A stretch of 32,000 nucleotides of DNA from an uncultured Erysipelotrichaceae bacterium (GCA_942493105.1 OW818668.1:1050001-1082000); one strand, 5' to 3'; positions 12,652 to 31,400 are shown, counted from the first letter of the stretch. Translations and numbers: made by a program. Notes: generated by a model from the letters alone, not told the origin.

Positions 12652-12652
12652 T
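12635..12652 (+). repeat. att core copy 1 (tcctgttgtcggcaccat), the 3' end of tRNA-Thr
   Basis: The 18-bp string is identical to 26541-26558. Confidence 0.9.
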
Positions 12653-12660
12653 TATTCATT

Positions 12661-12687
12661 AAACCCTTATAGAATAAGGGTTTTTTA
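12661..12687. terminator. Terminator hairpin after tRNA-Thr (element-borne copy)
   Basis: aaaccctta-tagaa-taagggttt plus T-run. Homologous to the hairpin at 26567-26592, with compensatory stem changes. Confidence 0.75.
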
Positions 12688-13794
12688 TTAGGTCATCTTC
12701 CGAATCGTACCAGAATCGTACCGCTTTTCTTGAATTTCATTTAATTTATCCACTAAAAGTAATTGATTTTGCTTGAACCAGTGACCATAAGTGTTGTTAA
12801 CCATATCTCTGGAGTGGCCTAATCTTTTTGCGATATCAAAGTCACTTAGTCCCATATTTATTAGTAAGGAAACATGGGAATGCCTAAAATCATGAATTCT
12901 TACTTGTTTAACTCCGGCAAGTTTACAATATTTGTTTTTGTGTCTTTCCAGAGTTGTTGCTGCGATTGGAACATCATAACCAAAGAGAAACCTTTCTGAA
13001 GAGAAATCTGGATACTTTTGCATCTCGTTGATGTGTGTTCTTAAGAGTTCATAGATATGATCCGGGAGAATTACATCCCTGTAAGATGTATTTGTTTTGG
13101 GAGTAGTAATTTTATGGGATCTAATATCAAAGTTTTTCGTAACATGTAGTGTTTTTTCTTTGAGATCAATGTCTCCAACTGTAAGAGCCTGTAATTCACC
13201 TTTACGGATTCCGCACCAGTACAAGACATTGAATATCAGAAAATAGTGCGGATTATCAACCACATCGATAAATCGATTAAATTCATCAAGTGTAAAATAA
13301 AGCATCTCTTTCTTTTGCTCATTAGTCTTTACGTACTCAATGGTGAATGGTGATTTGGCAATTTTGTCGTAGTTCACACCCCAAGTAAGAACGCCCTTAA
13401 AAGTCGCTTGAATTTTTTTTAAGTAGTTGTTTGAATATCCGCTTGCTAGAAGTTTGTTTTGCCAACGTTTAATCATTTCTTTACTAATCTGTGATACTTT
13501 AGTTTTCCCAAAAACTGGTAAAATGTGCATCTTATGAACTTCTTGGTATGAGAGTAATGATCGATACTTGAATTTGGGTTTTCGATCTTCAATATAAAGT
13601 GAAAACAATTGCTCATAAGTGATTTTCTCATCAGCAATATATAAGCTCTCTAAAAACTTTCGTTCTGCTTCTTTGGCTTCTTTAAGTGTCTTCCACTTAT
13701 TGCTTTCGACCTTTTTCTGTCGATATTTCCCATCACCATCGGTATAACGAACTTTGAAATAAATAGTTCCATTAGAATTTCTTCCAACTGCCAT
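12688..13794 (-). CDS. int: Tyrosine site-specific integrase (phage integrase family)
   Basis: Catalytic blocks GIRKGELQAL (R), HDFRHSHVSLLI (HxxR) and LGHSRDMVNNTYGHW (H...Y). Start set at 13794 (AGGAAGGG RBS). Confidence 0.9.
   Translation of the reverse strand: MAVGRNSNGTIYFKVRYTDGDGKYRQKKVESNKWKTLKEAKEAERKFLESLYIADEKITYEQLFSLYIEDRKPKFKYRSLLSYQEVHKMHILPVFGKTKVSQISKEMIKRWQNKLLASGYSNNYLKKIQATFKGVLTWGVNYDKIAKSPFTIEYVKTNEQKKEMLYFTLDEFNRFIDVVDNPHYFLIFNVLYWCGIRKGELQALTVGDIDLKEKTLHVTKNFDIRSHKITTPKTNTSYRDVILPDHIYELLRTHINEMQKYPDFSSERFLFGYDVPIAATTLERHKNKYCKLAGVKQVRIHDFRHSHVSLLINMGLSDFDIAKRLGHSRDMVNNTYGHWFKQNQLLLVDKLNEIQEKRYDSGTIRKMT
12703..12722 (+). repeat. Tandem AATCGTACC 9-mers at 11-bp spacing (putative arm-type recombinase sites, left end)
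   Basis: AATCGTACC at 12703-12711 and 12714-12722. The 18-bp block tcgtaccagaatcgtacc recurs at 26408-26425. Confidence 0.5.
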
Positions 13795-13849
13795 TGTATC
13801 CCTTCCTTTCAAAGTTTTTCTTTTTGTGTTTCATTTGATTTTAGAAAGA

Positions 13850-14200
13850 TCAAACTGCCTTTTTTTTGTATTTCTCTACAATGTCTCTAAAACTGAAAGA
13901 CAACTCCTCATCTAGCATAATTAGATTCTCGTAGTTACTGATTTCTAAATTGAATTTCTTAAAATAACTACTCAAATGGTATTCGACAATCAACTCTCGG
14001 GAGAAATATAGATTTAGTTCATCAATCCCCAAGCTTTCTGCGATCTTAGTAAGGTACTTGCCTCTTGGTGTTCTTTTACCACTGATCCATAATGAAACTG
14101 TACTTTGAGAAACGCCAACTAAATTTGCCAATTCGCTAGTAGTAAGGCTTTTTCTTTTCATAAATTGATATAAGCGAGGACCAAAATCGTTTTCATTCAT
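13850..14200 (-). CDS. XRE-family HTH repressor (cI/Stl-like position)
   Basis: HTH block LTTSELANLVGVSQSTVSLWISGKRTP. Divergent from the replication module. GGGAGA RBS. Confidence 0.85.
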   Translation of the reverse strand: MNENDFGPRLYQFMKRKSLTTSELANLVGVSQSTVSLWISGKRTPRGKYLTKIAESLGIDELNLYFSRELIVEYHLSSYFKKFNLEISNYENLIMLDEELSFSFRDIVEKYKKKAV

Positions 14201-14279
14201 AACATTATCTCCCTACCTAAATTATACTAGTTTGTATGACAATATGCAATAATAATATACATATAATCATTAATTGTAC

Positions 14280-14313
14280 TTGTAAATTACATAATGTGAT
14301 GGTATTATGTAAT
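14280..14313 (+). promoter_or_regulatory. Rightward switch promoter (TTGTAA-17-TGgTATTAT) overlapped by a perfect 10-bp inverted repeat
   Basis: ATTACATAAT (14286-14295), 8-nt spacer, ATTATGTAAT (14304-14313). The leftward promoter TTGCAT-17-TATAAT can be read on the minus strand at about 14228-14256. Confidence 0.6.
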
Positions 14314-14407
14314 AAAGGAGGCGATCATCGTTTGTGACTAAAGTTTGACTTAGAGAACATAATGGAGGCCGCACAAGTTAAATGTCACTCAGATCGTGAT
14401 ACTAACT

Positions 14408-14671
14408 ATGACACTAAGAGATTTATTGAAGAAGCCGTTTTGGTCACCTAAGGACTTGTCGTTGGCCACAGGAATATCACTTTGTACTGCGAGAGAGAGA
14501 CTATCTCAGATCAGGAAAGAACTTGAAGATCAAGGTTATATAAACCTAAACAACTCAAAGGCTCCAACAAAAATTATCATTGAAAGATTAAATATTGATC
14601 CTGACTGGTTGGAGAAAAGTGGTGCTTTAGATGAGATCCTCTCTGATTCAAAAGAATACGAGAGTTTATAA
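14408..14671 (+). CDS. Small HTH protein, DUF3173-like (possible Cro/excisionase-type factor)
   Basis: The pattern PKDLSLATGISLCTARERLSQIRKELEDQGY...PTKIIIERLNI resembles the small HTH proteins that accompany integrases in Firmicutes integrative elements. ATG at 14408 preferred over GTG at 14396. Confidence 0.45.
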   Translation: MTLRDLLKKPFWSPKDLSLATGISLCTARERLSQIRKELEDQGYINLNNSKAPTKIIIERLNIDPDWLEKSGALDEILSDSKEYESL

Positions 14672-14674
14672 GCT

Positions 14675-15463
14675 ATGGCAAATAAACGAATGTTTTCCTT
14701 GTCTGTATGTGCTACAGACTCTTTTCTTGAAATGCCATTTGAAGCTCAGTGTTTATACTTCCATTTGAATTTGTATGCTGATGATTACGGTCTTCTTGGA
14801 AACTGCAAGATGATCACAAAAATGGTTGGTATACCAGAGAAATACTTGAGTGTTCTTATAGAAAGTGGATTTTTAATAAGATTTGATAGTGGAGTTATCA
14901 TCATAGTTCATTGGCTTGTCCATAATACACTAAAGAATGATCGTATCAAAGAAACTATATATAAAAAGGAATACTCATTGATTTCAATAAACGAATCAAA
15001 AATATACGAACTAACTAACGCTACTTTAATCCATGAAAGTCACGTTTCTACTTCAGATACAGTTAATTCTGTCCGGATCCAAAATGGATCCAAAATGGAA
15101 ACAGAGATTAGTAAAGATTATAACAAAGGAGATGATTATAGATTAGATAAAGACGTTGCTTTAAAATGTAACGCATCATGTAACGTTACATTACTAGATA
15201 AAATAGACAACTCAGAAAAAGCAAGGAATAGTATTGGCAGAATAACTAAACATGGATTATATGCAAATGTGGAACTTACTAATGGTCAGTATCTCGAATT
15301 TATAGGCAAGGAATCTTTTGTTAATCGACTTTCTACCAAAATACTACATGGTTATAAGAGCAGTGATCATTATGGCGACTTAAATGAAATGAAAAGGGCA
15401 GAGAGAAAACTAAGAAGACTGTGTAGAAATAATCCTTTCAAAGGAATGAAGTTACAACAATGA
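14675..15463 (+). CDS. Phage replisome-organizer N-terminal-domain protein (DnaD-like replication initiator)
   Basis: N-terminus KRMFSLSVCATDSFLEMPFEAQCLYFHLNLYADDYGLLGN is typical of the Phage_rep_org_N family. Confidence 0.75.
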   Translation: MANKRMFSLSVCATDSFLEMPFEAQCLYFHLNLYADDYGLLGNCKMITKMVGIPEKYLSVLIESGFLIRFDSGVIIIVHWLVHNTLKNDRIKETIYKKEYSLISINESKIYELTNATLIHESHVSTSDTVNSVRIQNGSKMETEISKDYNKGDDYRLDKDVALKCNASCNVTLLDKIDNSEKARNSIGRITKHGLYANVELTNGQYLEFIGKESFVNRLSTKILHGYKSSDHYGDLNEMKRAERKLRRLCRNNPFKGMKLQQ

Positions 15464-15870
15464 AACTAGATATAATAGCAAGTAAAGGAAAGCCTAGAAC
15501 ATATTCTTCTGGTGATGAATTTCTCAAGGCAGTCGTTAAATATATCGATATCTGTGAAACCGTCTGGAAACAATATCCAAATATTGCAGGATTCTGCGCT
15601 TATGAAGGAATATGTAGAGACACTTTTTATATGCAAAAGGAATATTATCCCGACACTTATAAAAAAGCTCAAGATATTCTTGAGAACATTGCAATTAATA
15701 GCAGGAATGCTTCTGACACGATGAAGATATTTTATTTAAAGAATAAATTTCAATATAGGAATATTATTTATGATCATATTGAAACTGAGAAACCTGAAGA
15801 ATATGATTTTAGTGAATTAACTGATGAGGAACTTTATACTTTGACTTCACTGTTCGATAAAGTTAAATAA
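15460..15870 (+). CDS. Terminase small-subunit-like (gp3-type DNA-packaging) protein
   Basis: GKPRTYSSGDEFLKAVVKYIDICE...PNIAGFCAYEGICRDTFY...YKKAQDILE matches the N-terminal HTH pattern of Firmicutes phage TerS proteins. ATGA overlap with the upstream gene. Confidence 0.6.
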   Translation: MKLDIIASKGKPRTYSSGDEFLKAVVKYIDICETVWKQYPNIAGFCAYEGICRDTFYMQKEYYPDTYKKAQDILENIAINSRNASDTMKIFYLKNKFQYRNIIYDHIETEKPEEYDFSELTDEELYTLTSLFDKVK

Positions 15871-16014
15871 TTGAATGAAAAATGAACACTTAATTTTATC
15901 CGACTTCTAGTACCTAGCAACTCTCCGAAAATTTCAAGTAATTTCCTATTCCGGAAATCAGCGAAAAGACATTTTATTTGAAAATGACGTTTAGATTAGT
16001 CATCAACTAGAGAT

Positions 16015-16051
16015 CTCCAATCATGTTGAAAACATTTAGTGGAGTTTTTTT
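16015..16051 (+). terminator. Rho-independent terminator separating the backbone from the cargo operon
   Basis: Outer stem CTCCA/TGGAG, inner stem ATGTT/AACAT, followed by TTTTTTT. Confidence 0.7.
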
Positions 16052-16097
16052 AGCAAATTTGTATTAATTTTAGGAGTTTGTGTCCTAAAAACTGTAC

Positions 16098-16131
16098 TTA
16101 CATAAATATGTAAAATTCATCGTGTTATAAT
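16098..16131 (+). promoter_or_regulatory. Cargo-operon promoter (extended -10 TGtTATAAT) with upstream palindrome TTACAT-AAAT-ATGTAA
   Basis: TG at 16123-16124, TATAAT at 16126-16131, palindrome at 16098-16113. GAGGGGG RBS before the ATG at 16155. Confidence 0.55.
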
Positions 16132-16154
16132 TTAGAAAAACATGAGGGGGAAAA

Positions 16155-17522
16155 ATGACAATAAAAACAGATAATTATCGGATTATTATTAGCGATTTCG
16201 CCAAGCTTATAAGTGAAAGGAAATCAAAAGACTCTGCGCCAAAAACAGGAGTTATTAATTTCCGAGACGATCTTAAGAATGCAAAGGAACGTCCAATTTA
16301 TGAAGTTCCTCTCGAGTTACTTAGATATCGAAAAGATAATGGTCGAATAGCGAGTGACGTTTTAAGTTATGAAAGAACAGCTATGCATGATTTGGATGAG
16401 AGATTGCAGGAAACGCAAGATTTGCTTTTCAAGTGGTTGAAAGCAAAAGATGAGAAAAACACTGAAATCTTAATGAAAGACATTATAAAGAATGGTCAAA
16501 CTGAACCGTCAATAATTACATGCGATGGATTCCTAATAAACGGCAATCGAAGAAAAATGGTTCTTCAACTTTTAAACGAAAAGGACCCGACAAAATACAA
16601 GACAATGAAGGTCATCATTTTACCTAATGTAGGTGAAGATGGTGGCCAACCAACTATTAAAGAAATTGAATTGCTCGAGAATCGCTATCAATTAATGAAG
16701 TCGGGTAAATCAGAATATGAAGGACTTGATAGAGCGCTATCTATTCGGAGGAAAATTGAAATCGGAATTTCTTTAGAGGAACAGTTACTTGATGATCCAC
16801 AATATGCAGAATATAATGCAGGAGACAAGAAATTCAAAGAGATTGTAAACTCATATAGAAAGGAATTTCTGTGGCCATTAGAAAAGGTCGATGAATACCT
16901 CGAAGTCCTAAATAGATCAGGTCATTATGCTTCTGTTGAAGGTAAATGGCAATCATTTATTGATTATAGTAACTTCTTTCATGGTCAGCTGCAGGATCAA
17001 GTATATTTGGCAAAGAATGAAATCTCAGATAATGATATTGGGAAAATCCAGGATGCTTGCTTTAAAATAATCCGTAAAGGCAGCATTAATGGAATAAAAC
17101 ACAAGAACCACGAGATTATTCGAGAAATGAAAAAATTCTTAGCTGCCCCTGAAGCTAAGCAACATATCCTTAATATTGCAACAACAGTAAAGGACCTAAA
17201 ACCAGAAGAAGTTGAGGGAAAAGACATCCACGATGTTGACAAATTATGGGGTCAACATCCTGAACACAGCCAGAAACTTTCGTATAGTTTAAGCAACGCC
17301 TATGCTCACCTTGATGAACACAAAGCTGCTGAAACGCCTTTATCACTTCTTAAAGATTCATACAAGAGATTAACAAGTGAAAAGATGATTTTAGATAGTA
17401 TGAAGCCAGATGATCTTAAGGAATTTAGGAAGATTGTTGAGGATCTTGAGTTAGTGGCATATGATCTCAAAAATAAATCACTTGCATTAATTAATCGGAA
17501 AGATAAGGCGCATAAAAAGTAA
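16155..17522 (+). CDS. ParB/Srx N-terminal-domain protein with a long helical C-terminal region (cargo gene 1)
   Basis: IYEVPLELLRYRKDNGR and GQTEPSIITCDGFLINGNRRKMVL read as ParB box I and box II (GxRR arginine patch). I recognise no other domain. Confidence 0.6.
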   Translation: MTIKTDNYRIIISDFAKLISERKSKDSAPKTGVINFRDDLKNAKERPIYEVPLELLRYRKDNGRIASDVLSYERTAMHDLDERLQETQDLLFKWLKAKDEKNTEILMKDIIKNGQTEPSIITCDGFLINGNRRKMVLQLLNEKDPTKYKTMKVIILPNVGEDGGQPTIKEIELLENRYQLMKSGKSEYEGLDRALSIRRKIEIGISLEEQLLDDPQYAEYNAGDKKFKEIVNSYRKEFLWPLEKVDEYLEVLNRSGHYASVEGKWQSFIDYSNFFHGQLQDQVYLAKNEISDNDIGKIQDACFKIIRKGSINGIKHKNHEIIREMKKFLAAPEAKQHILNIATTVKDLKPEEVEGKDIHDVDKLWGQHPEHSQKLSYSLSNAYAHLDEHKAAETPLSLLKDSYKRLTSEKMILDSMKPDDLKEFRKIVEDLELVAYDLKNKSLALINRKDKAHKK

Positions 17523-19412
17523 ATGATAATAAAGCTTGGTGAATCCATTGAGTTAATCGATGATGGAAACGAACTGCTATCTTATCAGAAGAATCAAATT
17601 TTGATTTATGGCTTCCAAAAAACCACTAATGGATACAAACTAACAAATGATAAGATTATCGAAACTGTCATAAAACTTAATTCATACCTTAATGATGAGG
17701 GTATTAGTTTTAGTGCACCTGAATCCTTCAAAAAAATTGTTGACGAGAACGAAGCATCTATAAGTTCTTTTGATCAACTTAGGCTAAGGGCTTCAAACTA
17801 TAAAAAGGCAGATTTCGATGATACTGAATTCAAGAGATACATGAGGTTTTGCGATACAAATATACTCAGGAAATTGAAGCCTCACCAACTTAAAGCGTCT
17901 TATCATATGTACACAATTAGGAATGCAGCTAATTTTTCTGTTCCCGGAAGTGGAAAGACTTCGACAGTTTTAACAGCTTATGAAAAAATGAGGGTTGATG
18001 GGTTAGTAAATTGTTTAGTAGTTGTAGGGCCACCATCATCATTCTCCTCATGGAAAAATGAATTTAAATCAACGTTGGGAAGAGAACCCAATATTACTAT
18101 CCTATCTGGAATGAACAAGAAAGAAAGAGTTGATCAATATTTTGATGTTTATTCTCTTGATCGTCTGTTATTGTTGTCATTTCAAACGTACGCCAACGAC
18201 TATCAGTATATTATCAAGTTCCTGCAGCATGAAAAAATTCAGGCTTTTATCGTAATAGATGAAGCTCATTATATGAAACAAATAAATGGGAAATGGGCGA
18301 ATGCTATCTTGAAAACAAGTGATTTTGCGACTGCAAGATGCGTTTTAACAGGGACTCCATGTCCAAGAAGCTACTCAGATTTATTCAACTTATTTGACTT
18401 TATTTGGGGTAAAAATATAGCGATTTCAAATAAAGATAAAGCAGTCGTATTAAGTCTTGAGAAGCGAAAAGACTTTGATAAAGCAAGCGAAATTATCAAA
18501 AGAAATCTGGATCCATTTTTTTATAGAGTCAGAAAGAAGGACTTAGGACTTACAGAGCCATTGTTCATAGATCCAATTGTAATTAGAATGAAGGAACAAG
18601 AACGAAGAGTATATGACAGTATTTTTAAGAAGATATCGGAATTGTCCGCCTTTGATGATCCGAACAATATTGATAGTCTTATAAAACTTAAAAGTGCAAG
18701 AATCATTCGTTTAAGACAGATATTATCTTATACGGGGCTACTTAAGTCAGCCTTTACATCTGATGGTGAAAAACTCATTGATTTAAATGATCTAGAATCT
18801 GTTATTAGTAAATACGATTTAATTGAAATACCGGCAAAAATCGATCACTTATTGTCTCTAGTAAAAGAGATTCGGAAAAAGGATAAAAAGATCCTAATTT
18901 GGTCTAATTTCATTAGTACTATTGACCTAATTAAAAGACAATTGACTGACCAGGGTTATGGTGTACAGTCTATAACCGGGGAAACTCCAGTTGTAGATCA
19001 AATAGATGAAACCATTTTGACAAGGGAAGATATTATTGATGTTTTTCTCGATATGGGAAGTGGAGTTGACTTCTTAGTAGCCAATCCTGGTGCATGTGCT
19101 GAGTCAATTTCATTGCATAAAAGTTGCCACAATGCGATTTATTATGATCTATCCTATAATTGTTCACAATATCTTCAATCACTAGATCGAATTCACCGTG
19201 TTGGAGGTTCTGAAACAATTGTTTCAACATACTATTTTTTGCAATATGCTGACACGATTGACAATGATATATTTCAAAATCTTATCCAGAAAAGGGATAA
19301 AATGTACAAAGTAGTCGAATATGATTCCGATATATATACACTTGATATCGAAGTTTTCGAAGATAGAAATGATGACGACGCTACAGCGTATGACAGGATT
19401 TTTAAGAAATGA
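17523..19412 (+). CDS. SNF2-family SF2 ATPase/translocase (cargo gene 2)
   Basis: Motif I VPGSGKTS, motif II VIDEAHYMK, motif III LTGTPCPRSYSDLFNLFDFIWG, C-terminal helicase lobe ILIWSNF..., motif VI QSLDRIHRVGG. Starts immediately after the upstream stop (TAAATG). Confidence 0.85.
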   Translation: MIIKLGESIELIDDGNELLSYQKNQILIYGFQKTTNGYKLTNDKIIETVIKLNSYLNDEGISFSAPESFKKIVDENEASISSFDQLRLRASNYKKADFDDTEFKRYMRFCDTNILRKLKPHQLKASYHMYTIRNAANFSVPGSGKTSTVLTAYEKMRVDGLVNCLVVVGPPSSFSSWKNEFKSTLGREPNITILSGMNKKERVDQYFDVYSLDRLLLLSFQTYANDYQYIIKFLQHEKIQAFIVIDEAHYMKQINGKWANAILKTSDFATARCVLTGTPCPRSYSDLFNLFDFIWGKNIAISNKDKAVVLSLEKRKDFDKASEIIKRNLDPFFYRVRKKDLGLTEPLFIDPIVIRMKEQERRVYDSIFKKISELSAFDDPNNIDSLIKLKSARIIRLRQILSYTGLLKSAFTSDGEKLIDLNDLESVISKYDLIEIPAKIDHLLSLVKEIRKKDKKILIWSNFISTIDLIKRQLTDQGYGVQSITGETPVVDQIDETILTREDIIDVFLDMGSGVDFLVANPGACAESISLHKSCHNAIYYDLSYNCSQYLQSLDRIHRVGGSETIVSTYYFLQYADTIDNDIFQNLIQKRDKMYKVVEYDSDIYTLDIEVFEDRNDDDATAYDRIFKK

Positions 19413-20311
19413 AACTTTCAAATATAAAAAAACAGCGTATTAATGCTATTGTTGACTTAGTGAAATCTAGCTCATATAAGGACATAGGTAACATAAGGAG
19501 TATTTATGAAATAGATTTTCCATACTTCGAGGAAAATTTAAATTGCTTAATTCTGATTGGCATAATGATAGTTCAAAACAATCATCTTGAGATTTTAGTA
19601 GAAGATTATGATTTCACAGATATTTTAGTTTCTAAAATTGCCGACCCAAAGATTCAAATGGGGAAACTGTCAAGTTTTATTAGCCTATTTGACAATATCG
19701 ATTTCGTTCTATACCCGTCAGAATTCGAGCGAGTTATGTATTATGAAGAACGCACATTTTTGGTTGAATTTGAACTTGTAGAAATCGACAAGTCAGCAAT
19801 TGTAATAATTAATGATTATTTGAAAAAGTTAGTTTCAACTAGAAGGATGACTCTTGTAGAACTGGACAAATTAAATGAAAGGAAGAAGTTATTGGGCCAT
19901 AATGCTGAACTATTTGCATTTCAGTTTGAGATATCTGAAGCTAGTCGGTTCGGTTCAATAATCGATCAAGAAAGGATTAAGATTATTTCTGATGAATGGG
20001 TAAATGCTGGATATGATCTCATAGGGTTTAGTAAAGATGCAGCTAAAATTGGAAAACATATCGAGATTTTCATTGAGGTAAAAGCGGTACATTTGGCATC
20101 ACCAAGATTCTTCTGGAGTACTAATGAGATTGAGGTAGCCAAAACGTATAAGTCACGATACTTCCTATATTTAGTTGATGTTGACGGGTTATCTAAAAAT
20201 AGGTATGATTCAATCGTGATTATTCAGGATCCATTTGTTGCTTTGTTTAATAATGAATCAAAGTGGGAATGGGAATGCGATTCGCTTGTCTTTAAGAAAG
20301 GAGAACATTAA
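19409..20311 (+). CDS. DUF3883-like PD-(D/E)xK nuclease-fold protein with an uncharacterised N-terminal half (cargo gene 3)
   Basis: The C-terminal pattern GHNAELFAFQFE...GYDLIGF...IEVKAV...FFWSTNEIEVA...YFLYLV matches the DUF3883 layout (G..E...E / GYD / IEVK / S.NE / Y.LY.V). ATGA overlap with the SNF2 gene. Confidence 0.6.
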   Translation: MKLSNIKKQRINAIVDLVKSSSYKDIGNIRSIYEIDFPYFEENLNCLILIGIMIVQNNHLEILVEDYDFTDILVSKIADPKIQMGKLSSFISLFDNIDFVLYPSEFERVMYYEERTFLVEFELVEIDKSAIVIINDYLKKLVSTRRMTLVELDKLNERKKLLGHNAELFAFQFEISEASRFGSIIDQERIKIISDEWVNAGYDLIGFSKDAAKIGKHIEIFIEVKAVHLASPRFFWSTNEIEVAKTYKSRYFLYLVDVDGLSKNRYDSIVIIQDPFVALFNNESKWEWECDSLVFKKGEH

Positions 20312-21225
20312 TGCCTAGTAAGTATAAATTCTTCTTAGGTTATTCAGAAAATGTTCTTAAGGATAAGCGAAGTTTTCCTGATGAATCAATAGACTTGATT
20401 GTTACTTCCCCCCCCTATTCAGACAGAAGATCAAATGATTATGGTGGTGTCAAAGCAGATAAATATGTTGAATGGTTCTTGCCCATTTCCAGTGAAATGT
20501 ATCGAGTATTAAAGCCACAGGGATCCCTTATTATCAATATTAAAGAACATGTCGAGGATGGTGAGAGACAAACTTACGTTATTGAACTCATACTTGCAAT
20601 GAAAAAACAAGGATGGAAATGGGTTGATGAATACTGTTGGTATAAGAAAACAGCTTTTCCAGGAAAGTGGCCAAATAGATTTCGTGATTCATTTGAGAGA
20701 TGCCTTCATTTTACTAAAAACAAGAAATTTTTTATGGATCAAGATGCTGTAAAAGTAAAGATCGGTGATTGGGCAGAAAAAAGATTTAAATCTATGTCAG
20801 AAGTTGATTTTATCAATCATGCGTCAAAGAATAATAAGCATCTCAATAGAAAAGTGTCAAATTGGCTTGATAAACAGACTGTATATCCACACAATGTATT
20901 GGTTTTTGAGGAAGAGCACTATCCTACAAATGTACTTGAAATATCTCCTGTAACAACTGATAAGAATCATAGTGCTTGTTTTCCTATTGAGTTACCGGCT
21001 TGGTTCATCATGTTATTATCTCCAGAAGGAGGAATAGTTTTGGACCCATTTTCCGGAATCGGAACTACTGCTCTAGCTGCAGTTCTCCTAAATAGGAATT
21101 TTAAGGGGATTGAAAAGGAAGAAGCCTATAAAAATATATCTGAAGAGAACCTTGCAGATTTAAGTAACTCTCTACTTTTGAAAGAAAAGAAGAAAAAGAA
21201 AACAATCAAGGAAGAGATTATATAG
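20311..21225 (+). CDS. Beta-class DNA methyltransferase, N4-cytosine/N6-adenine family (PF01555-type; cargo gene 4)
   Basis: Motif IV DLIVTSPPYSDRR precedes motif I LDPFSGIGTTALAA (beta permutation). TAATG overlap with the upstream gene. Lys/Glu-rich tail. Confidence 0.85.
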   Translation: MPSKYKFFLGYSENVLKDKRSFPDESIDLIVTSPPYSDRRSNDYGGVKADKYVEWFLPISSEMYRVLKPQGSLIINIKEHVEDGERQTYVIELILAMKKQGWKWVDEYCWYKKTAFPGKWPNRFRDSFERCLHFTKNKKFFMDQDAVKVKIGDWAEKRFKSMSEVDFINHASKNNKHLNRKVSNWLDKQTVYPHNVLVFEEEHYPTNVLEISPVTTDKNHSACFPIELPAWFIMLLSPEGGIVLDPFSGIGTTALAAVLLNRNFKGIEKEEAYKNISEENLADLSNSLLLKEKKKKKTIKEEII

Positions 21226-21341
21226 TAAATTTTTATAAGTGCTTCTTACAAGGTTTTTAGTACAAGATCAGAATCATGTCTAATATCAATAGCATTAACG
21301 TTGAAAAATGTACATAACACTAAAAGATCGGAGTTTCTAGT

Positions 21342-24300
21342 ATGAAACTAGTTGAAGACAGCATTAGGGAAATTCTAACAAGACTACCATCTGAAAACTC
21401 TTGTCTTGATTACAAACAAATCCCGTATAAAAAAGAAAAGTATCATGACCTAATTAAGGATGTTATTTCAATGCTAAATTCTGAAGATGGGTACACTCAA
21501 GATAAATATCTAATTTTTGGCGTAACGGATGCGCATGTGAAAATTGGTTTAAGGATTCCAATGCCAGATGATAGCGAGATTCAAGCTATAATGGACAAAA
21601 TTCGTCCAAGGCCAGAAATTCAGTCAGGTAAACTGATATTTGAGAGTTTGGAATTTGGTTACATTATGATTAACGGTTCCAATAATGAACGAGTTTATGA
21701 AGTCAAGCATACTTATCCTGAACAAACTCACGAAATTCATGAGGGGCAAGCATTCATTAGACGTTGTACATCTACAAGAATAATGAACCAAAGTGACAGA
21801 AGACGAATTGAAAGCATAGCTATCGAAAGTACGCATTTTCTAGCGGGACAATCATTTCTGTATCCTGTTATAGGTAATCCAAGCCAATTTTCGAATATGA
21901 ACCCAATGCTCATTGCCTCTTTAATTGGATCTTGGAATGAAAAAAATCCGAATGACATATTGTTTATTGAATCATTGATTAAAAGCGATTATTTTGTTTG
22001 GACCGTAAATATCCAGACATTACTTACACAAGGGGACAAGAACCTATCTCTAAAGAATGGTGTTTGGAGTGTAAAGAATAGAAATGAAATTATTGCTACA
22101 AACTGTAAAACACTTTTTGACAATCATATTGATTCAATTGTGAGTCAAATCGCAAAATCTCTATCTGTTTCAGATCCACTTTTTGATATTCCAAATGAGG
22201 ATAGACTGATTGCTCAATTGGGTGGATCAGAGACGAGTTTATCTACTGAATTGACTCGAGAGATTGCCAAAACATTAGCGATTTTGTCGAGTAAGAAACA
22301 TATCTTTTCGAACTGTACTGTTGGTAGAGTTAAAGAGGTTATTGATACTGCCGTTTACAGCATACTAAATGAAAAGGATTGGAAGATATGGGAAACAATT
22401 AACTGGAATTTAAAGTATCTAGTTCAGGCATCTCCTGACTCATTTTTTAGAGTTCTCGAAAAGGAGATATCACAGAGTAATAACCAAATAGAGAAACTAT
22501 TTTCTGAAGTCAATGGATCAATTAGCCAACAGTTCTGTGGTTCGGGACTTATTCATGCTTTACAAGTAATTGCGTGGTCAAAAGATTATTTTTCAAGGGC
22601 ATATTTGAATTTGCATCAAATCGATTTATTAATGCCTCATAAGACATCAGATTTGCCTATAAATATTATTCCTTGGAATATTCAAACTGAGGCACCGAAG
22701 GAAACTCGTTATCAATTAATCAACTCAATCTATCGTGAATTTGATAAAGACATATGGAGCTTCATAGAGCCGCTTTTACCAAACCAAACAACAACGGTAA
22801 TCACGATTGAAAAGCCGGAATTCATTCAAGGCAATTATGATATACAGAAAATTACGAATGAGCAATATTGGGATGATGTAAATTTCTATCTTGAAATTGC
22901 GACTAAAATTGCCAAAGGTGTACCAGATTACTTATTGTTCCTCGTAAAGCTTATTGATGAAGTACCTACAGATGGTAGAGAAAAAATACTAAATCTAGTT
23001 GTCGAATGCAATGAATCATTAATTGATGAAAAAGATAGGTTCATCATCTGGGATGAATTACTTAAATTAGTTACTAAGCATCAGAAGTTTTCAGATGCTG
23101 ATTGGGCATTTGATGAGAAAATCTTAAATGAAGTCCTTAAAGTTGCAGAGTTAATTGCACCAAAGGAAGAAGCTATGATAATTTCTAGATATTTTAAGGA
23201 GGAACAATATGAACTAATTGATGATTCAAAGGACTATAGTATCGGCGAGAGAGAATTGTTTCAGAAACAGGTAGATATTGTTGTTGATTTGTATGAAAGG
23301 AAGGGATTCGAAGGCATCAAGAATCTCGTTAAATTCTCTTCTAATAAATTCCTTGTTGGAATTGCATTTGGTCAGACCAGAAGTATTTTAGATAATATTA
23401 CGGATTATACAACTTGGTATAATTCTGATTCAGAATTAAGTTCATTTTCGCAAGGACTTTTATATCAACTTTATAGAAGATTTGGGCAAGAACTAATCAA
23501 CAAAATTGATTACACAATATTATCATGTAGTAAAAAGGTAGACTTTCTAAAGCTACTAGAATTTAATGAACAGACTTGGAAAACTGTTGAAGTCTGGCTT
23601 GGGGAGTCTGTCAATCTTTATTGGGAAAGTGTTTCTGTATTGCGTAAGAATTTTGATAAAACCGAATATGCTATTAGTCAATTATTAAAAGTAAAAAAGT
23701 ATGATAGTATAATCCAAATCATAGCTAATGATATCATTAAGGGCAAACCTGCTGATCTTGAAACCACACTAATTGCACTAGAATTAAGAACATCAGAGAC
23801 ACGAGAAAGTAATACTTTAGTTACATATTATATTCAAAAAATATTCGGATGGTTGCAAAAGAATTGCCCTGATAAATCTAGACTTTCAAAACTTGAATGG
23901 AGATATTTTAACCTTCTTGAAAGTGATGTGAGACCTGTCACACTTTTTACTGAAATATCAAGAGATTCAGAGCTATTTGTAAAGTTTCTGTCTCTTGCTT
24001 TTAGAAGTGAAACAGGACAAACAGATCCAGATCACAATCAAGAAATTGATCCCCAAAATCTTTCGGTTCATGCATGGACCATTTTGAATAAATGGAATCA
24101 AGTTCCAGGCTATAACGAGAACGGGGAATTCTCAAAGGCCCAATTTAATGAATGGTTTGACAAAGTTATCGAACTAAGTTCTCTGAACGGTAGATTAAGA
24201 ATAGCATTAACAATTATTGGAAAAGTGTTGTTTCACACTCCAAAAGACGCTACTGGGCTCTTCATTAATCGTGATATTGCATTAATCATTGATATGAAAG

Positions 24301-24536
24301 AGTATGAGTATTTACGTAATGGTTATATGACAGAGGCAATAAACTCACGAGGTGTTCACTGGGTTGATCCTTCCGGTCAAGAAGACTATAAATTAGAGCA
24401 ATCATGGAAGGATAAGGCTAAGGCCTTAGAGACTATTTGTTGTCTCAGATTTTCAGAGACTGCGAAAATGATCTCAAGTCATTTCAAAGATGAAGGAGAT
24501 AGAAACCGTGCAGAAGCTGTCGAGGAAACTGAGTGA
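21342..24536 (+). CDS. Large (1064 aa) protein with an N-terminal AlbA_2/Schlafen-like domain and a ~900-aa helical region of unknown function
   Basis: The N-terminal pattern ENSCLDYKQ...LIKDVISMLNS...LIFGVTDAHVKIGL...GQAFIRRCTSTRIM fits the AlbA_2 (divergent AAA_4) layout. GGAG RBS. No terminator between it and the methyltransferase gene. Confidence 0.5.
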   Translation: MKLVEDSIREILTRLPSENSCLDYKQIPYKKEKYHDLIKDVISMLNSEDGYTQDKYLIFGVTDAHVKIGLRIPMPDDSEIQAIMDKIRPRPEIQSGKLIFESLEFGYIMINGSNNERVYEVKHTYPEQTHEIHEGQAFIRRCTSTRIMNQSDRRRIESIAIESTHFLAGQSFLYPVIGNPSQFSNMNPMLIASLIGSWNEKNPNDILFIESLIKSDYFVWTVNIQTLLTQGDKNLSLKNGVWSVKNRNEIIATNCKTLFDNHIDSIVSQIAKSLSVSDPLFDIPNEDRLIAQLGGSETSLSTELTREIAKTLAILSSKKHIFSNCTVGRVKEVIDTAVYSILNEKDWKIWETINWNLKYLVQASPDSFFRVLEKEISQSNNQIEKLFSEVNGSISQQFCGSGLIHALQVIAWSKDYFSRAYLNLHQIDLLMPHKTSDLPINIIPWNIQTEAPKETRYQLINSIYREFDKDIWSFIEPLLPNQTTTVITIEKPEFIQGNYDIQKITNEQYWDDVNFYLEIATKIAKGVPDYLLFLVKLIDEVPTDGREKILNLVVECNESLIDEKDRFIIWDELLKLVTKHQKFSDADWAFDEKILNEVLKVAELIAPKEEAMIISRYFKEEQYELIDDSKDYSIGERELFQKQVDIVVDLYERKGFEGIKNLVKFSSNKFLVGIAFGQTRSILDNITDYTTWYNSDSELSSFSQGLLYQLYRRFGQELINKIDYTILSCSKKVDFLKLLEFNEQTWKTVEVWLGESVNLYWESVSVLRKNFDKTEYAISQLLKVKKYDSIIQIIANDIIKGKPADLETTLIALELRTSETRESNTLVTYYIQKIFGWLQKNCPDKSRLSKLEWRYFNLLESDVRPVTLFTEISRDSELFVKFLSLAFRSETGQTDPDHNQEIDPQNLSVHAWTILNKWNQVPGYNENGEFSKAQFNEWFDKVIELSSLNGRLRIALTIIGKVLFHTPKDATGLFINRDIALIIDMKEYEYLRNGYMTEAINSRGVHWVDPSGQEDYKLEQSWKDKAKALETICCLRFSETAKMISSHFKDEGDRNRAEAVEETE

Positions 24537-24559
24537 GTATAGTATAATAATTATAGAGT

Positions 24560-25582
24560 ATGACAAACAAATTTCCTTTCGGCCAATTAGTTACTCTTGA
24601 ATTTCAGAAGGATGAATCTCCAAAAAAGGTGTTTGTTTTAGATTCATTTCCAAGTGCTGTGTATGCGAAATGGGTTATGGATACTGGAACTGTTTACAAC
24701 TTGTTACCAGTAGCTAGTGAGCCGAGTAACCTCTGGTACGGTGATGCAAAAGAAGCCATTCAAATTATTGAGAATATTTCAATCCCTGATGATTTGGGAA
24801 GTTTGTCTTTACCTGATAAGGAAGTAAACGGAATTAAGAACCGGATTATACTTAACAATATATTAAAGCCGATGTATTTCCATCGGTATGATGTCTGGAT
24901 GTGTTACTTGTCCCCAGATTTTAAAATGAATGACAAGCAAAAAAAGCTATTGAAAAAACGTTATGAACCATTGATGAAAAACTTTTGTTTAAATGATGTT
25001 ACTATTCCTTTAGAAAATAGTATAAGTTGCGATAGGAATAGGGTGCTTCAAATCACTAGTGAGCTAATTCAGTCTAGAGCGGATTATTTGATCCTTTTGG
25101 GTGATCTAGCCATTCAGTATTATTTAAGAAACGTTTTCGATTTCAAGTTTAGAAACCTCAGAGATTATTCTGCTAGATGCGGCTATGGGAAGCCATTTAA
25201 AGCTCGTATAGGGTCGAAAGATATTGAAGTAATATTATTAGCGTCACCAAATCAAATCATGGATACAAGTAGAAGAAACGCCTATTGGTACAATGCCCAT
25301 AAGACATGGGAAAATTCTGAAAAAATAGTTGATATGAGAACATCTTATTATTTCATTAAGGATCTTGAACTTGTGGGAAAATGTGATGGGATGACGCCTT
25401 ATATTTATCGAGACAATGAGTGGCAATTTGATTATTTGCTCATGGATAGAATTATTGGATACGATGAAACGGAGCAGAATACCCCATATTGGTGTGGAAA
25501 TTCTGACATTATGAGAACAGTTGAGAGAATATCTAAGGATGATGTGAAGAGAATTTTGGGAGTAAGCTTTAGTTTCTTTTGA
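24560..25582 (+). CDS. Divergent uracil-DNA-glycosylase-superfamily-fold protein with an ~80-aa C-terminal extension (paralog A)
   Basis: The order of blocks mirrors the UDG fold: KKVFVLDSFPSAVYAKW (motif A position), NNILKPMYFHRYDVWMCYLSP, ADYLILLGDLAIQ, EVILLASPNQI (motif B position). Clear paralog of 28400-29179. Confidence 0.45.
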   Translation: MTNKFPFGQLVTLEFQKDESPKKVFVLDSFPSAVYAKWVMDTGTVYNLLPVASEPSNLWYGDAKEAIQIIENISIPDDLGSLSLPDKEVNGIKNRIILNNILKPMYFHRYDVWMCYLSPDFKMNDKQKKLLKKRYEPLMKNFCLNDVTIPLENSISCDRNRVLQITSELIQSRADYLILLGDLAIQYYLRNVFDFKFRNLRDYSARCGYGKPFKARIGSKDIEVILLASPNQIMDTSRRNAYWYNAHKTWENSEKIVDMRTSYYFIKDLELVGKCDGMTPYIYRDNEWQFDYLLMDRIIGYDETEQNTPYWCGNSDIMRTVERISKDDVKRILGVSFSFF

Positions 25583-25699
25583 TATTTGGATAATGTTAAA
25601 ATGCATTTAATATCAAATAGAAAAACCACTTTAAAGGTTTATATCATGGAATCGTATTTATTGAAGTATTGTGTATAATAAATTTAGCGGAGGTAAAAT

Positions 25700-26161
25700 A
25701 TGAGAAAATTCTTCCTGGTGCTATGTGTTCTTTTATTATGTGGATGTAGTGGGGTAAACAATGAACCAAATGATGAAGACCCTGTGGACGAAGATCCTGT
25801 TGATGAAGAACCTGCAAGAGTGGTTTTAGAAGTCCCCAATGCTATCACAATTATTGACGTATTCTATAACAATGAACTAGATGGTAATAAACAGTACTTC
25901 GGCAAATGGGTCAAAACTTCAGCTCTCTTTGATAAAATTGATCACTCTTGGACTGGAGATTTATGGGTCTATTTCGATGCAAAAAACTCAAAGGGTTATT
26001 ATGGTCACTATGGAATTTTGTGTAATGAAATGAGTAAAGAAGAAAAGGCTAAAATCTCCAATTTCGACAAGGGAAAACCAGTTGTTTTTATTGGATTGAA
26101 TCAAGGAATAATTGGTGATAGTAGAATTGAATTTAATAAGTGCGAGTTTCCAGAATATTGA
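25700..26161 (+). CDS. Lipoprotein with an acidic DE(D/E)PV repeat linker, function unknown
   Basis: GGAGG RBS. Signal peptide plus lipobox LLCGCSG. Then NDEDPVDEDPVDEEP and a ~110-aa globular domain. Confidence 0.7.
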   Translation: MRKFFLVLCVLLLCGCSGVNNEPNDEDPVDEDPVDEEPARVVLEVPNAITIIDVFYNNELDGNKQYFGKWVKTSALFDKIDHSWTGDLWVYFDAKNSKGYYGHYGILCNEMSKEEKAKISNFDKGKPVVFIGLNQGIIGDSRIEFNKCEFPEY

Positions 26162-26227
26162 AATGCATCGAAAATTAGTTGTGAACTTATTGTTTGGCTT
26201 ATACTATATGAGATCAACTATATACAG

Positions 26228-26329
26228 TTATGCTTCTGATAAGTTTTCTACCCAACTTAAAAGTTCCTCTGACTCTCCCTTTAGTCCAAGCAGCTGACAA
26301 ATCAATAACATCGAATCAATGTATAACAT
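26228..26329 (-). CDS. Possible 33-aa micro-ORF (MLYIDSMLLICQLLGLKGESEELLSWVENLSEA)
   Basis: Not in the supplied track (too short). GAGGTG RBS 5 nt upstream of the ATG at 26329; TAA at 26228-26230. Confidence 0.2.
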   Translation of the reverse strand: MLYIDSMLLICQLLGLKGESEELLSWVENLSEA

Positions 26330-26405
26330 TTTTCACCTCACTTCTTTGTTCGCACTAATTTATATTATTCCTACATTATTTTTGGTAATTTAGTATGTCT
26401 ATTAC

Positions 26406-26454
26406 ATTCGTACCAGAATCGTACCAAATCAATTATCAAAAGCTGAATTGTACC
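26406..26454 (+). repeat. Three AATCGTACC-type 9-mers (putative arm-type sites, right end)
   Basis: ATTCGTACC at 26406-26414, AATCGTACC at 26417-26425, AATTGTACC at 26446-26454. Same orientation as the left-end copies. Confidence 0.5.
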
Positions 26455-26533
26455 GATAAAACACCATACGAACTATCAAAAAACTAATTTTTCTGATTAT
26501 TTTAAAGGATTTTCGAATGAATTATATTCGTAA

Positions 26534-26558
26534 GTTCGATTCCTGTTGTCGGCACCAT
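26534..26558 (+). pseudogene. Displaced 3' fragment of tRNA-Thr carrying att core copy 2
   Basis: gttcgattcctgttgtcggcaccat is a T-loop plus 3' acceptor plus CCA with no 5' half. The core at 26541-26558 is identical to 12635-12652. Confidence 0.85.
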
Positions 26559-26566
26559 GACACATC

Positions 26567-26592
26567 AAACCCTGATAGAATCAGGGTTTTTT
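26567..26592 (+). terminator. Terminator hairpin (presumed original tRNA-Thr terminator)
   Basis: aaaccctga-tagaa-tcagggttt plus T-run. Confidence 0.75.
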
Positions 26593-27620: not shown

Positions 27621-27742
27621 CCCAAATCGTCTGTCTCGTCATCCCGAGGGACACGATTGGGTGTGCCTAAACGTTCATGCTAGACTGTGGGGAATGCTCC
27701 ACCTGGAGCGAATACGAAGACCGTGGTGAGCTCTATAGAATT
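27621..27742 (+). repeat. Structured intergenic repeat, copy 1 (long hairpin plus conserved core)
   Basis: Hairpin CCCAAATCG...CGATTGGG at 27621-27661 enclosing atcccgagggacacga. The core 27655-27742 is roughly 80-85 percent identical by eye to 30763-30848 and includes the GCTCC/GGAGC hairpin. Confidence 0.6.
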
Positions 27743-28205: not shown

Positions 28206-28399
28206 GGGAATGATAGTATTTATTAATGAATGCCTAATTATTTTTTGGCAAAAGCAACATTAAATTCTTATTAGGCTGGCCTGACCCCCAAAAATTGGTA
28301 TAACTTTGAATCAGAGATTTGGAGTGGCTGAGAAAAATAGTTAACATATTGAAAGATATTATGATGCTGGTTTACTTACATTTATTAAGGAGAACTACA

Positions 28400-29179
28400 A
28401 TGTATAAATTTCCATTTGGGCAGGATGTAAAAAGACTAGTACAGCAAGACCAAACACCAAAAAAAGTGTTCGTTTTAGGTGTATATGCCAGTGCAGTACA
28501 TGCGAAATGGATTCGAGATGGGAAGATCATATGTCAAGCCTTAGCAGTCGCGAGTGAGCCTTATATCTTTTGGGACGGAAATTTAAACGATACGTTGGCA
28601 ATTATAAACCAGATTAACATACCAGAAGAATTAGGTACACTCGTTTTGCCAAGCAGTAATTTGAATGGTCCGTCAGCGAAAGTGCTTGTAGAGAACATTC
28701 TTAAGCCAATGGGATATACTCGAAGCGATGCGTGGTTATGTGATTTGTTACCTGAATCGAGATTAAATCCAAATCAACTCAAAGTTATTAAAGAAAGATA
28801 TAACCCTCTAATCGAAAAATACTGTCTCAATGAGGTAACAGTACCTATCGAGGATGGTAATTTCAGTGATGAAACAAGAGCGAAGAAAATCACAGAAGAA
28901 ATATTAAAATCGCAAGCTGATTCGATTGTGCTTTTGGGTGATATTCCAATTCAACAATATTTGAAATATGAATGTAATATTGAGTTCAAGAGTCTCAGGG
29001 AATATACTCAAAAATATGGATATGGAACACCGCTTAGAGCCCAAATAGGTACGAAAGAGTTTGAAGTGATATTGTTAACTCATCCAAGACAGATTGGTGG
29101 ATTGGGTAGATCAAGCACTTATTGGTCAACCGAGCATAAGATTTGGGAGATAAGTGCTGAATTAAAGAGAAGTCGGTAA
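28400..29179 (+). CDS. Divergent UDG-superfamily-fold protein (paralog B, outside the island)
   Basis: AAGGAG at 28387-28392. The start MYKFPFGQ aligns with MTNKFPFGQ of 24560. Blocks KKVFVLGVYASAVHAKW, ENILKPMGYTRSDAWLCDLLP, ADSIVLLGDIPIQ and EVILLTHPRQIGG. Confidence 0.5.
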   Translation: MYKFPFGQDVKRLVQQDQTPKKVFVLGVYASAVHAKWIRDGKIICQALAVASEPYIFWDGNLNDTLAIINQINIPEELGTLVLPSSNLNGPSAKVLVENILKPMGYTRSDAWLCDLLPESRLNPNQLKVIKERYNPLIEKYCLNEVTVPIEDGNFSDETRAKKITEEILKSQADSIVLLGDIPIQQYLKYECNIEFKSLREYTQKYGYGTPLRAQIGTKEFEVILLTHPRQIGGLGRSSTYWSTEHKIWEISAELKRSR

Positions 29180-30562: not shown

Positions 30563-30762
30563 TTTATCCCTTTCCTCATAATAAAAGCCATTACAAAAAT
30601 TGTAACAGAGAATCTTTAGATTTACATATCTATTACATATTGAAGTGAATATTTTGAGGAAGTGTGAAAGTGGATTAGGTCGACATTTATAGAGTAACAA
30701 TGTTGAAGTGGTCTGAGAAAAACTACTCAGACTTTGGCTTTGGCAAACTCACCGTTGGACAA

Positions 30763-30848
30763 GATTGGTAGTGCCTAAGCGTTAATACTAGAATGTAGGG
30801 AATGCTCCATGTGGAGCTGATACGAAGACCGTGGAGAGTTCTGGAATT
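30763..30848 (+). repeat. Structured intergenic repeat, copy 2 (core only)
   Basis: gattggtagtgcctaagcgttaatactagaatgtagggaatgctccatgtggagctgatacgaagaccgtggagag. The hairpin stem is conserved, while the loop changes from ACCT to ATGT. Confidence 0.6.
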
Positions 30849-31232: not shown

Positions 31233-31320
31233 GAGGATTGTTGGTTTTTAGATTACAGTGGATTTATAAGAGAGCCCTGTGAGGATTATCATATAAGTAC
31301 AACAGAGTAAAAAGGTTTGG

Positions 31321-31400
31321 TCGTTCCCGTTATCCCGAGGGACACGAACTCACTCAGCCCTTAAGCTAATACTCGTCAACACAGAACGCTTCCCTAAGTG
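31321..31400 (+). repeat. Structured intergenic repeat, copy 3 (diverged)
   Basis: Shares atcccgagggacacga (31332-31347) with 27641-27656, and shares gcccttaagctaatactcg with the core. GGGACAC...GTGTCCC forms an inverted repeat. Confidence 0.4.

Follow-up and report, generated by a model that had tools for sequence, protein, structure and literature searches.

The window analysed here is a stretch of 32,000 nucleotides from an uncultured Erysipelotrichaceae bacterium (GCA_942493105.1, OW818668.1:1050001-1082000), and all positions are counted from its first letter. The gene in question lies on the plus strand at positions 21342 to 24536 and encodes a protein of 1064 residues, in which a Schlafen-type domain is followed by a very long helical module. 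On balance its product is probably an immune protein of the prokaryotic Schlafen (pSlfn) kind that works as a single, self-contained polypeptide, the gene being part of the cargo of a small integrative island. The gene and the parts of its product are as follows, residue numbers being those of the protein, AF2 standing for AlphaFold2 and pLDDT for its predicted local distance difference test score.

21342 to 24536, plus strand: gene for the Schlafen domain plus helical module, ATG start, 1064 residues, stop codon included (open reading frame list and translation)
21330 to 21333, plus strand: Shine-Dalgarno-like GGAG, 8 nt before the ATG, read directly off the sequence
21342 to 21821, plus strand: residues 1-160, Schlafen/AlbA_2 nuclease-type domain, the proposed effector (Pfam, profile and fold)
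21393 to 21416, plus strand: residues 18-25, Schlafen catalytic motif E-x4-D-x-K, here ENSCLDYK (alignment of 21 Schlafen-type members)
21822 to 21902, plus strand: residues 161-187, a poorly conserved linker of low confidence (pLDDT below 50 for residues 163-184; variable in the Schlafen-type alignment)
21903 to 24533, plus strand: residues 188-1064, C-terminal all-helical solenoid, the proposed sensor or regulatory platform (AF2, Foldseek and profiles)
21903 to 22100, plus strand: residues 188-253, putative winged-helix-like sub-domain that opens the C-terminal module, with a GSWNE..D motif (order of secondary structure in AF2)
22665 to 22694, plus strand: residues 442-451, most conserved core motif, IIPWNIQTEA, family consensus LPWxPQTxA (broad alignment)
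24342 to 24359, plus strand: residues 1001-1006, C-terminal motif NSRGVH (alignments)

The open reading frame is no chance frame, since it runs for 3.2 kb in DNA of about 34% G+C and its product has full-length homologs with E values from 0 to 1e-215. The start position of these homologs coincides in the alignments with the ATG at 21342, and P0001 in the protein collection that was searched is identical to the 1064-residue window protein.

Residues 18-148 match the Pfam family PF04326 (SLFN_AlbA_2) at E=1.1e-8; the score of 36.1 bits clears the family's cut-off of 25.3. When a profile of the N-terminal domain was compared with PDB sequences it recovered SLFN11 (7fex, E=2.7e-6), SLFN13 (5yd0, E=3.7e-4) and CbCash (9ylu, E=0.017). 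An AF2 model of residues 1-184 has a pLDDT of 87.5, and its top Foldseek matches in the PDB are SLFN13 (5yd0, E=1.1e-4), SLFN12, the tRNase domain of SAMD9 and SLFN11. The sequence-only reading of this DNA had already placed an AlbA_2/Schlafen module at the N-terminus, and the Pfam score, the SLFN profile matches and the Schlafen fold bear it out; the motifs that it quoted (E..LDYK, LIFGV.D and AFIRR) are present in the translation, and the profile search that it proposed as a check returned an AlbA_2 match above the Pfam cut-off.

The catalytic motif of the Schlafen nucleases is intact. The sequence L15-PSENSCLDYK-25 includes E18-x4-D23-x-K25, and none of the 21 Schlafen-bearing family members that were aligned departs from E18 or K25, while all have either D or E at position 23. 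Profile alignments set E18/D23/K25 over E17/D22/K24 of CbCash and over the E-x4-E-x-K of mammalian SLFN11 and SLFN13. In CbCash, the substitutions E17Q, D22N and K24A abolished tRNA cleavage (Weickert et al. 2026, PMC13462974). Because the Ex4(E/D)xK triad is present, and because relatives carry SIR2, TIR, nucleoside phosphorylase (PNP) and other enzymatic effectors at the same position, the N-terminal domain is probably a catalytically competent Schlafen RNase effector and more than a nucleic-acid binder. By analogy with characterised Schlafens, its likeliest targets would be tRNAs. The sequence-only reading had seen in it a nucleic-acid-binding module, and in the whole protein a possible "sensor or scaffold"; the AlbA_2 domain itself stands, and in view of the triad and the effector slot its role is better read as that of an RNase effector.

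The C-terminal module spans about 870-880 residues. Its AF2 model, for which 17 homologs were available, consists of helices throughout, with pLDDT mostly between 80 and 95, and the best Foldseek matches in the PDB are generic HEAT/ARM solenoids (CAND1, karyopherins and cohesin loaders) at TM-scores of 0.1-0.2. Foldseek against the viral predicted structures of BFVD gave nothing below E=1e-3. Residues from about 188 to 1064 match no family in Pfam, NCBIfam or PADLOC, and the whole-family profile had 0 matches to PDB sequences at E<=10. The window protein contains no Walker A motif, and a Walker A-like string occurs anywhere in the protein in only 17 of the 163 family representatives that were compared, a frequency that fits chance. 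A predicted solenoid with no Walker A motif and no match to a catalytic family has the look of a sensor or scaffold, much as the sequence-only reading had described it when it spoke of a long helical-repeat scaffold in which no catalytic motif could be read. Among the library models just one matches the module, phrog_18693 (PHROGs v4, function unknown), with E=2.9e-64 over residues 181-1052 of the window protein and positions 356-1242 of the 1258 in the model. This PHROG differs in its N-terminal region of some 355 residues, which is probably the type B architecture of P0013, P0016 and P0017 described below.

At the start of the module, residues 188-253 follow the order helix-strand-helix-helix-strand-strand in the AF2 model, a topology that suggests a winged-helix-like fold, and G196, W198, E200 and D205 are invariant over all N-terminal types in the broad family alignment. 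Residues 350-470 form the most conserved block among the 163 representatives; in the core motif P444 is invariant, and P447, T449 and A451 are conserved in at least 90% of the broad alignment. Close to the C-terminus, every member of the Schlafen-type subgroup has N1001 and G1004, and almost every one has S1002; G1004 is at least 90% conserved over all N-terminal types, and the columns of N1001, R1003 and G1004 are at least 85% conserved among the 163 representatives. These three stretches are the best conserved of the module, and its most variable stretch is residues 510-830. Within the Schlafen subgroup the mean pairwise identity is 44.6% for the N-terminal domain, 31.9% for the C-terminal module and 26.9% for residues 510-829.

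Analysis of the relatives of the window protein helped to define the relationship between its two parts. A word-indexed search with the protein gave only 17 relatives, and a second such search with the Schlafen-type alignment gave no further ones. An exhaustive profile search gave 7930 cluster representatives (clusters at 50% identity) at E<=1e-3 and 4398 at E<=1e-30; the family profile includes N-terminal columns, so that some of the weak matches may be Schlafen-only proteins. The top 150 profile matches all align over about 850-1150 profile positions. A narrower family alignment, when used to scan for loci, found only 5 genome loci and no viral contig, and the wider family is present on 9 IMG/VR contigs. 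The suggestion, made at first from the DNA alone, of a large and probably uncharacterised protein family in a defence context agrees well with these 7930 representatives, with the absence of a library annotation and with the restriction-modification and Abi genes found as neighbours. The C-terminal module was bounded by a hidden Markov model, and the N-terminal remainders of 163 sequences were clustered into types:

Type A, 90 of 163 representatives: unannotated, about 280 residues, motifs STGGGG..FE, TDD and Q-x-K
Type B, 24 of 163: unannotated, about 360-530 residues, probably the phrog_18693 layout
Schlafen, 20 of 163 plus one divergent sequence (P0091): the group of the window protein
SIR2, 4 of 163: nearest PADLOC models are Argonaute-associated SIR2
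PNP, 1 of 163: P0036
GT4-conflict glycosyltransferase, 1 of 163: P0070
FRG, 1 of 163: P0076, which matches the PADLOC candidate PDC-S15
TIR/SEFIR, 1 of 163: P0108
Other unannotated types, 9 of 163: six small groups
Without N-terminal domain, 11 of 163: about 860 residues

Clustering of the C-terminal modules by identity shows that modules bearing different N-terminal domains are 40-56% identical to each other; the module of the PNP-bearing P0036, for example, is 56% identical to that of a type A protein and 52% identical to that of the GT4 protein. Since modules so similar carry different N-terminal domains, these domains have been exchanged on one chassis. The N-terminal position can be regarded as an effector slot because related C-terminal modules carry SIR2 (as in P0053), TIR/SEFIR, PNP, GT4-conflict, FRG and Schlafen domains there. 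The 20 Schlafen-type representatives, the window protein included, form separate and more divergent branches that are at most about 29% identical to the main clade.

The type A domain (P0009, P0011, P0012, P0014, P0015 and 85 others) has conserved STGGGG..FE, TDD and Q-I-K motifs over about 280 residues. By eye these motifs look like a PD-(D/E)xK nuclease core, and no library recognises the domain. For the Nitrospira protein P0056, which was counted among those without N-terminal domain, a gene of its own supplies the type A domain, as a 321-residue product 55% identical to residues 1-314 of P0009. This split form was seen at positions 5046-8592 of locus L096 (Nitrospira sp. GCA_020430345.1), where the 321-residue type A gene overlaps the gene for an 863-residue C-terminal module by 11 bp, and the arrangement recurs in 4 of the 4 contigs shown, out of 16 with this Nitrospira protein.

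It is conceivable, and we propose it tentatively, with somewhat more doubt than belief, that the C-terminal module is an undescribed immune chassis without a nucleoside triphosphatase (NTPase), which couples one infection cue to at least eight unrelated N-terminal effectors in many phyla and in prophages, and that the window protein belongs to its Schlafen-armed, divergent Firmicute/Bacteroidota branch. The eight effectors counted here are the Schlafen RNase, SIR2, TIR/SEFIR, nucleoside phosphorylase, GT4, FRG and two unannotated types. Its basis is that the module is missing from the libraries and papers searched, and such a negative carries less weight than a positive demonstration.

By analogy with RorSlfn5, CbCash, SLFN11 and DSR2, we infer a role in defence and suggest how the protein might act. 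The N-terminal 160 residues would be a Schlafen-type metal-dependent endoribonuclease with the triad E18/D23/K25 and with tRNA as the likeliest target, and the C-terminal 880 or so residues, as an NTPase-free alpha-solenoid with a winged-helix-like start, would keep this nuclease silent. An infection cue, most likely a phage protein, would be captured by the solenoid. The module might then shift in conformation or oligomeric state and allow the nuclease domains to pair or polymerise; tRNA cleavage would follow, leading to translation arrest and an aborted infection.

Some observations weigh against this reading of the gene. The counterpart of SLFN11 D252 in the window protein, D63, varies between D and N within the Schlafen subgroup, and for that reason the E-D-K triad may by itself suffice for catalysis, as in CbCash. 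The N-terminal domain is poorly placed in the full-length AF2 model, so that autoinhibitory contacts are not readable from it. The C-terminal module of the main clade is fairly conserved, at 40-56% identity across different effectors. A cue that is itself conserved, or a partner in the host, would explain this no less than direct recognition of a phage protein; the cue may be a conserved phage feature or a host-state signal and not a fast-evolving phage protein. Some homologs, such as that of Listeria newyorkensis, are surrounded by housekeeping genes. The C-terminal module is not modelled in PADLOC 2023, and in the literature we found no experiment on the Schlafen-solenoid family.

Comparison with known systems helps to place the protein. 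The Ex4(E/D)xK motif defines 5,930 prokaryotic Schlafen proteins, and 97% of them carry fusions with further domains (Perez Taboada et al. 2026, PMC13056530). In that survey two of the seven pSlfn systems tested protect E. coli; RorSlfn5 is a tRNase that is switched on by a phage tail assembly chaperone; and besides 55 pSlfn classes there are 1020 "unannotated fusions" in 558 clusters. The window protein has the features of a pSlfn, namely PF04326 above the cut-off, the Ex4(E/D)xK motif, the Schlafen fold and a fused accessory domain. Like RorSlfn5 and EcoSlfn7 (PMC13056530) it joins in one polypeptide a PF04326 nuclease domain bearing the motif and a larger domain presumed to be the sensor, in the window and at part of the 12 loci of its relatives the setting is one of mobile elements or defence genes, and its putative effector is more conserved than its putative sensor, as has been reported for pSlfn5 (PMC13056530). 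It differs in its alpha-solenoid of about 880 residues, whereas the frequent partners named in the main text of the survey are immunoglobulin-like, DUF262, histidine-kinase and helix-turn-helix domains (PMC13056530). The Schlafen-solenoid architecture may be among the 1020 unannotated fusions. A Schlafen protein of Enterococcus lactis, also with an unannotated C-terminus, confers broad abortive-infection defence (PMC13552941).

With CbCash (PMC13462974; PDB 9ylu, 9ylv and 9ylx) the window protein has in common the N-terminal Schlafen domain and the E-D-K triad. Cash proteins sense cyclic tetraadenylate (cA4) through a Csx15 Rossmann-like domain and lie downstream of type III CRISPR (PMC13462974), whereas in the window protein a nucleotide-sensor domain is absent, and so is any CRISPR context around its gene. 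A parallel in logic and layout is DSR2 (defence-associated sirtuin 2), where the HEAT-like solenoid captures a structural protein of the phage, the tail tube protein, and the N-terminal SIR2 site is thereby opened allosterically (PMC11850899). Both proteins have an N-terminal toxic enzyme, predicted in our case, followed by a long HEAT-like alpha-solenoid and no NTPase, and some members of the present family carry SIR2; the N-terminal domain of the window protein, however, is Schlafen/AlbA_2 and not a SIR2 NADase. Homology to the helical MID-CTD sensor region of DSR2 was looked for and set aside, as the C-module profile has no PDB match at E<=10 and DSR2 is outside the 50 best fold matches; nor does the PADLOC library as a whole match the C-terminal module, that of the SIR2-bearing P0053 included. 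In the absence of any such sequence, fold or PADLOC match the resemblance to DSR2 is one of analogy and not of membership.

Avs/STAND proteins and bacterial NLR-related sensors also place exchangeable N-terminal effectors on a conserved sensing chassis and follow the logic of single-gene abortive infection. Membership of STAND/Avs was rejected, as the protein has no Walker A motif and no NTPase family of the NACHT or NB-ARC type was matched in Pfam or NCBIfam. Upx was rejected as well: it combines a beta-rich N-terminal sensor with a C-terminal PD-(D/E)xK nuclease (PMC13601566), and the window protein has the reverse layout, an all-helical C-terminus and no PADLOC match.

The surroundings of the gene are those of a mobile element, and the larger features are these:

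12576 to 26592, strand not assigned: integrative island at tRNA-Thr(cgt), about 13.9 kb between its repeats (tRNA scan, direct repeat, open reading frames, PHROG matches and G+C)
16155 to 21225, plus strand: four-gene cassette for a 455-residue ParB-like protein, an SNF2 helicase, a NOV_C/DUF3883 protein and an N6/N4 methyltransferase (Pfam and PADLOC)
21226 to 21341, plus strand: 116-bp gap between the methyltransferase gene and the Schlafen gene (promoter/terminator scan and RNA fold)

The tRNA-Thr(cgt) gene occupies positions 12576-12651 and is followed by an integrase gene on the minus strand. A 59-nt imperfect direct repeat (12628-12686 and 26534-26592, 86% identity) bounds the island and consists of the last 24 or so nt of the tRNA-Thr gene plus the hairpin after it; at the start of the island the G+C content falls from about 0.40 to about 0.33. 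Besides the integrase, the island encodes an XRE-like regulator, a DnaD-like replication protein, a small-terminase-like (TerS-like) protein, the four-gene cassette, the Schlafen-solenoid protein, a 340-residue protein and a small lipoprotein. By analogy this layout recalls the phage-inducible chromosomal islands (PICI) and would be phage-satellite-like. The flanking housekeeping proteins share 90%-identity clusters with proteins from metagenome-assembled genomes of Erysipelotrichaceae, and the island proteins that were looked up are singletons. Just inside both ends of the island, at 12705-12722 and 26408-26425, stands a perfect 18-nt direct repeat, TCGTACCAGAATCGTACC, which could be a binding site for a recombinase or regulator.

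The 340-residue protein is encoded at 24560-25582 on the plus strand, starting 23 bp past the stop codon of the Schlafen gene. It has a paralog outside the island, at 28319-29179 on the plus strand, with 45% identity over 257 residues. Neither of the two has a match in Pfam, NCBIfam, PADLOC, PHROG or PDB sequences, nor does either occur next to a homolog of the Schlafen-solenoid protein at the 12 loci that were inspected; the downstream gene was for this reason rejected as a conserved partner. Also downstream of the island, a low-G+C region contains a 91-nt direct repeat (27644-27734 and 30752-30842, 82% identity) and, adjacent to it, a 28-nt repeat (27629-27656 and 31320-31347). These repeats suggest a second mobile or duplicated segment between 26.6 kb and the end of the window.

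What surrounds the relatives differs from locus to locus. Their neighbours include ParA/ParB with a secretion ATPase, an N6 methyltransferase with Abi_2 at the lysis end of a prophage, RE_AlwI with a methyltransferase and a HEPN AbiU2 protein, DUF4238, IS200, an S-layer protein and housekeeping genes, and among the homolog loci there is no conserved neighbour gene. The context is one of defence or mobile genes in the window and, in a small sample of 12 loci, at L002-L005, L007 and L011, and is not at L009 and L012. Such varied settings and the lack of a conserved neighbour are in keeping with the stand-alone, single-gene defence that had been offered from the DNA alone as one of two alternatives. 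On the metagenome contigs L002-L005, from a gut-type Firmicute, P0003 follows genes for a 681-residue N6_Mtase and a 357-residue unknown protein; in L002 the homolog lies at 6812-9911, with an Abi_2 gene upstream, and the site is the lysis end of a prophage. These contigs add another kind of methyltransferase neighbourhood, unlike that of the window.

A non-immune role is an unlikely explanation, though the first of the alternatives to be considered. The protein might serve the island as an addiction or stabilisation toxin, perhaps together with the 340-residue protein, or a factor in RNA processing or the stress response. The gene 23 bp past the stop codon has no known function, some homologs are outside recognisable defence islands, and 30% of the pSlfn genes in the published survey have no defence neighbours (PMC13056530), all of which such a role would accommodate. 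It would account less well for the absence of the 340-residue gene beside every homolog, for an N-terminal repertoire (SIR2, TIR/SEFIR, PNP, FRG, GT4-conflict and Schlafen) that is typical of immune effectors, or for the several contexts with restriction-modification, Abi_2, AbiU2 and DUF4238 genes.

Somewhat more improbable is a reversal of the roles of the two parts, with AlbA_2 as a nucleic-acid-binding sensor and the helical module as an output scaffold that recruits or sequesters host or phage factors, no RNA being cleaved. AlbA_2 domains do bind nucleic acids, and that of SAMD9 was crystallised with DNA (7ksp); some Schlafens are without catalytic residues (PMC13462974), and the winged-helix-like sub-domain that opens the C-terminal module could be thought to favour the same arrangement. 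The strict conservation of E-x4-D-x-K in the subgroup, however, is not expected of a pure binding module, the domains at the same position in relatives are enzymes (SIR2, TIR, PNP and GT4) that are effectors in other systems, and the C-terminal module has no detectable enzymatic signature.

The cassette upstream of the Schlafen gene is widely conserved as a unit and has the look of a defence system akin to restriction-modification and so far uncharacterised. None of the PADLOC system models spans all four genes, and we found no published description of the cassette, papers comparing Dnd and BREX included. Its SNF2 helicase resembles ZorD/DpdE/DrmD and its NOV_C/DUF3883 protein resembles PD-T4-1; the 455-residue protein (16155-17522) has a weak ParB-like similarity at its N-terminus. 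This last protein belongs to a large and well-conserved family with at least 1404 word-indexed matches, at 42-62% identity, and with 341 metagenome stretches. On contigs of other organisms its gene is followed by those for the SNF2 helicase, NOV_C and the N6/N4 methyltransferase, overlapping or abutting, and the gene after the methyltransferase differs, being for instance one for a DUF1016/YhcG nuclease or a small open reading frame with no known counterpart. None of 83 loci with the 455-residue gene has the C-terminal module within up to 9 kb on either side, 18 of these loci having the complete colinear cassette plus at least 1 kb downstream. Conversely, no close relative of any cassette gene is present at the 12 loci encoding relatives of the Schlafen-solenoid protein, the sole match being a 24%-identical methyltransferase about 6 kb away at L011. 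With 0 of 83 and 0 of 12 loci combining the two, the cassette and the Schlafen-solenoid gene are independent modules.

In the 116-bp gap between them the promoter/terminator scan found neither a terminator-like site on the plus strand nor a convincing promoter, and the RNA fold is weaker than that of shuffled sequences (minimum free energy -14.4 kcal/mol, z=+1.55). The sequence-only reading was thus right that the gap contains no terminator, and because of this and of the unstable fold read-through transcription from the methyltransferase gene into the Schlafen gene is possible. Co-transcription of this kind in this strain would not imply a shared mechanism. A further suggestion had been that the gene may supply the upstream system with a fifth component, as sensor or scaffold, to which the part of a backup effector can be added; the common strand, the 116-bp gap with no terminator and no clear promoter of its own, the Schlafen RNases known as back-up effectors beside BREX and restriction-modification loci (PMC12839542; PMC13462974, cluster 4) and two other homologs that adjoin methyltransferase genes, of different families, speak for this, yet it is very improbable and already largely refuted by the co-occurrence counts just given, the cassette being kept elsewhere as four overlapping or abutting genes with another gene or none after the methyltransferase, and defence genes often sharing islands with no joint function.

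Schlafen RNases, with the many "sensor" domains fused to them, were shown to be anti-phage effectors in bacteria only in 2026. The window protein ties a Schlafen effector to a very large helical module that has no curated annotation and that is common to proteins armed with SIR2, TIR, PNP, GT4 and FRG. Should the module be a sensor, knowledge of its trigger would account in one stroke for how thousands of proteins are activated, and it would provide a second NTPase-free solenoid sensor for comparison with DSR2. If the chassis reading is true, the family would rank with Avs, DSR2 and Shedu among the major single-gene defence families of modular build. That one small mobile island holds two separate defence modules is also of practical weight for any cloning of "the operon" as a unit. 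The principle of the Schlafen effector has already been established by recent publications, and what the present gene offers is a definite starting point, open to experiment, for work on a family that is very large and uncharacterised.

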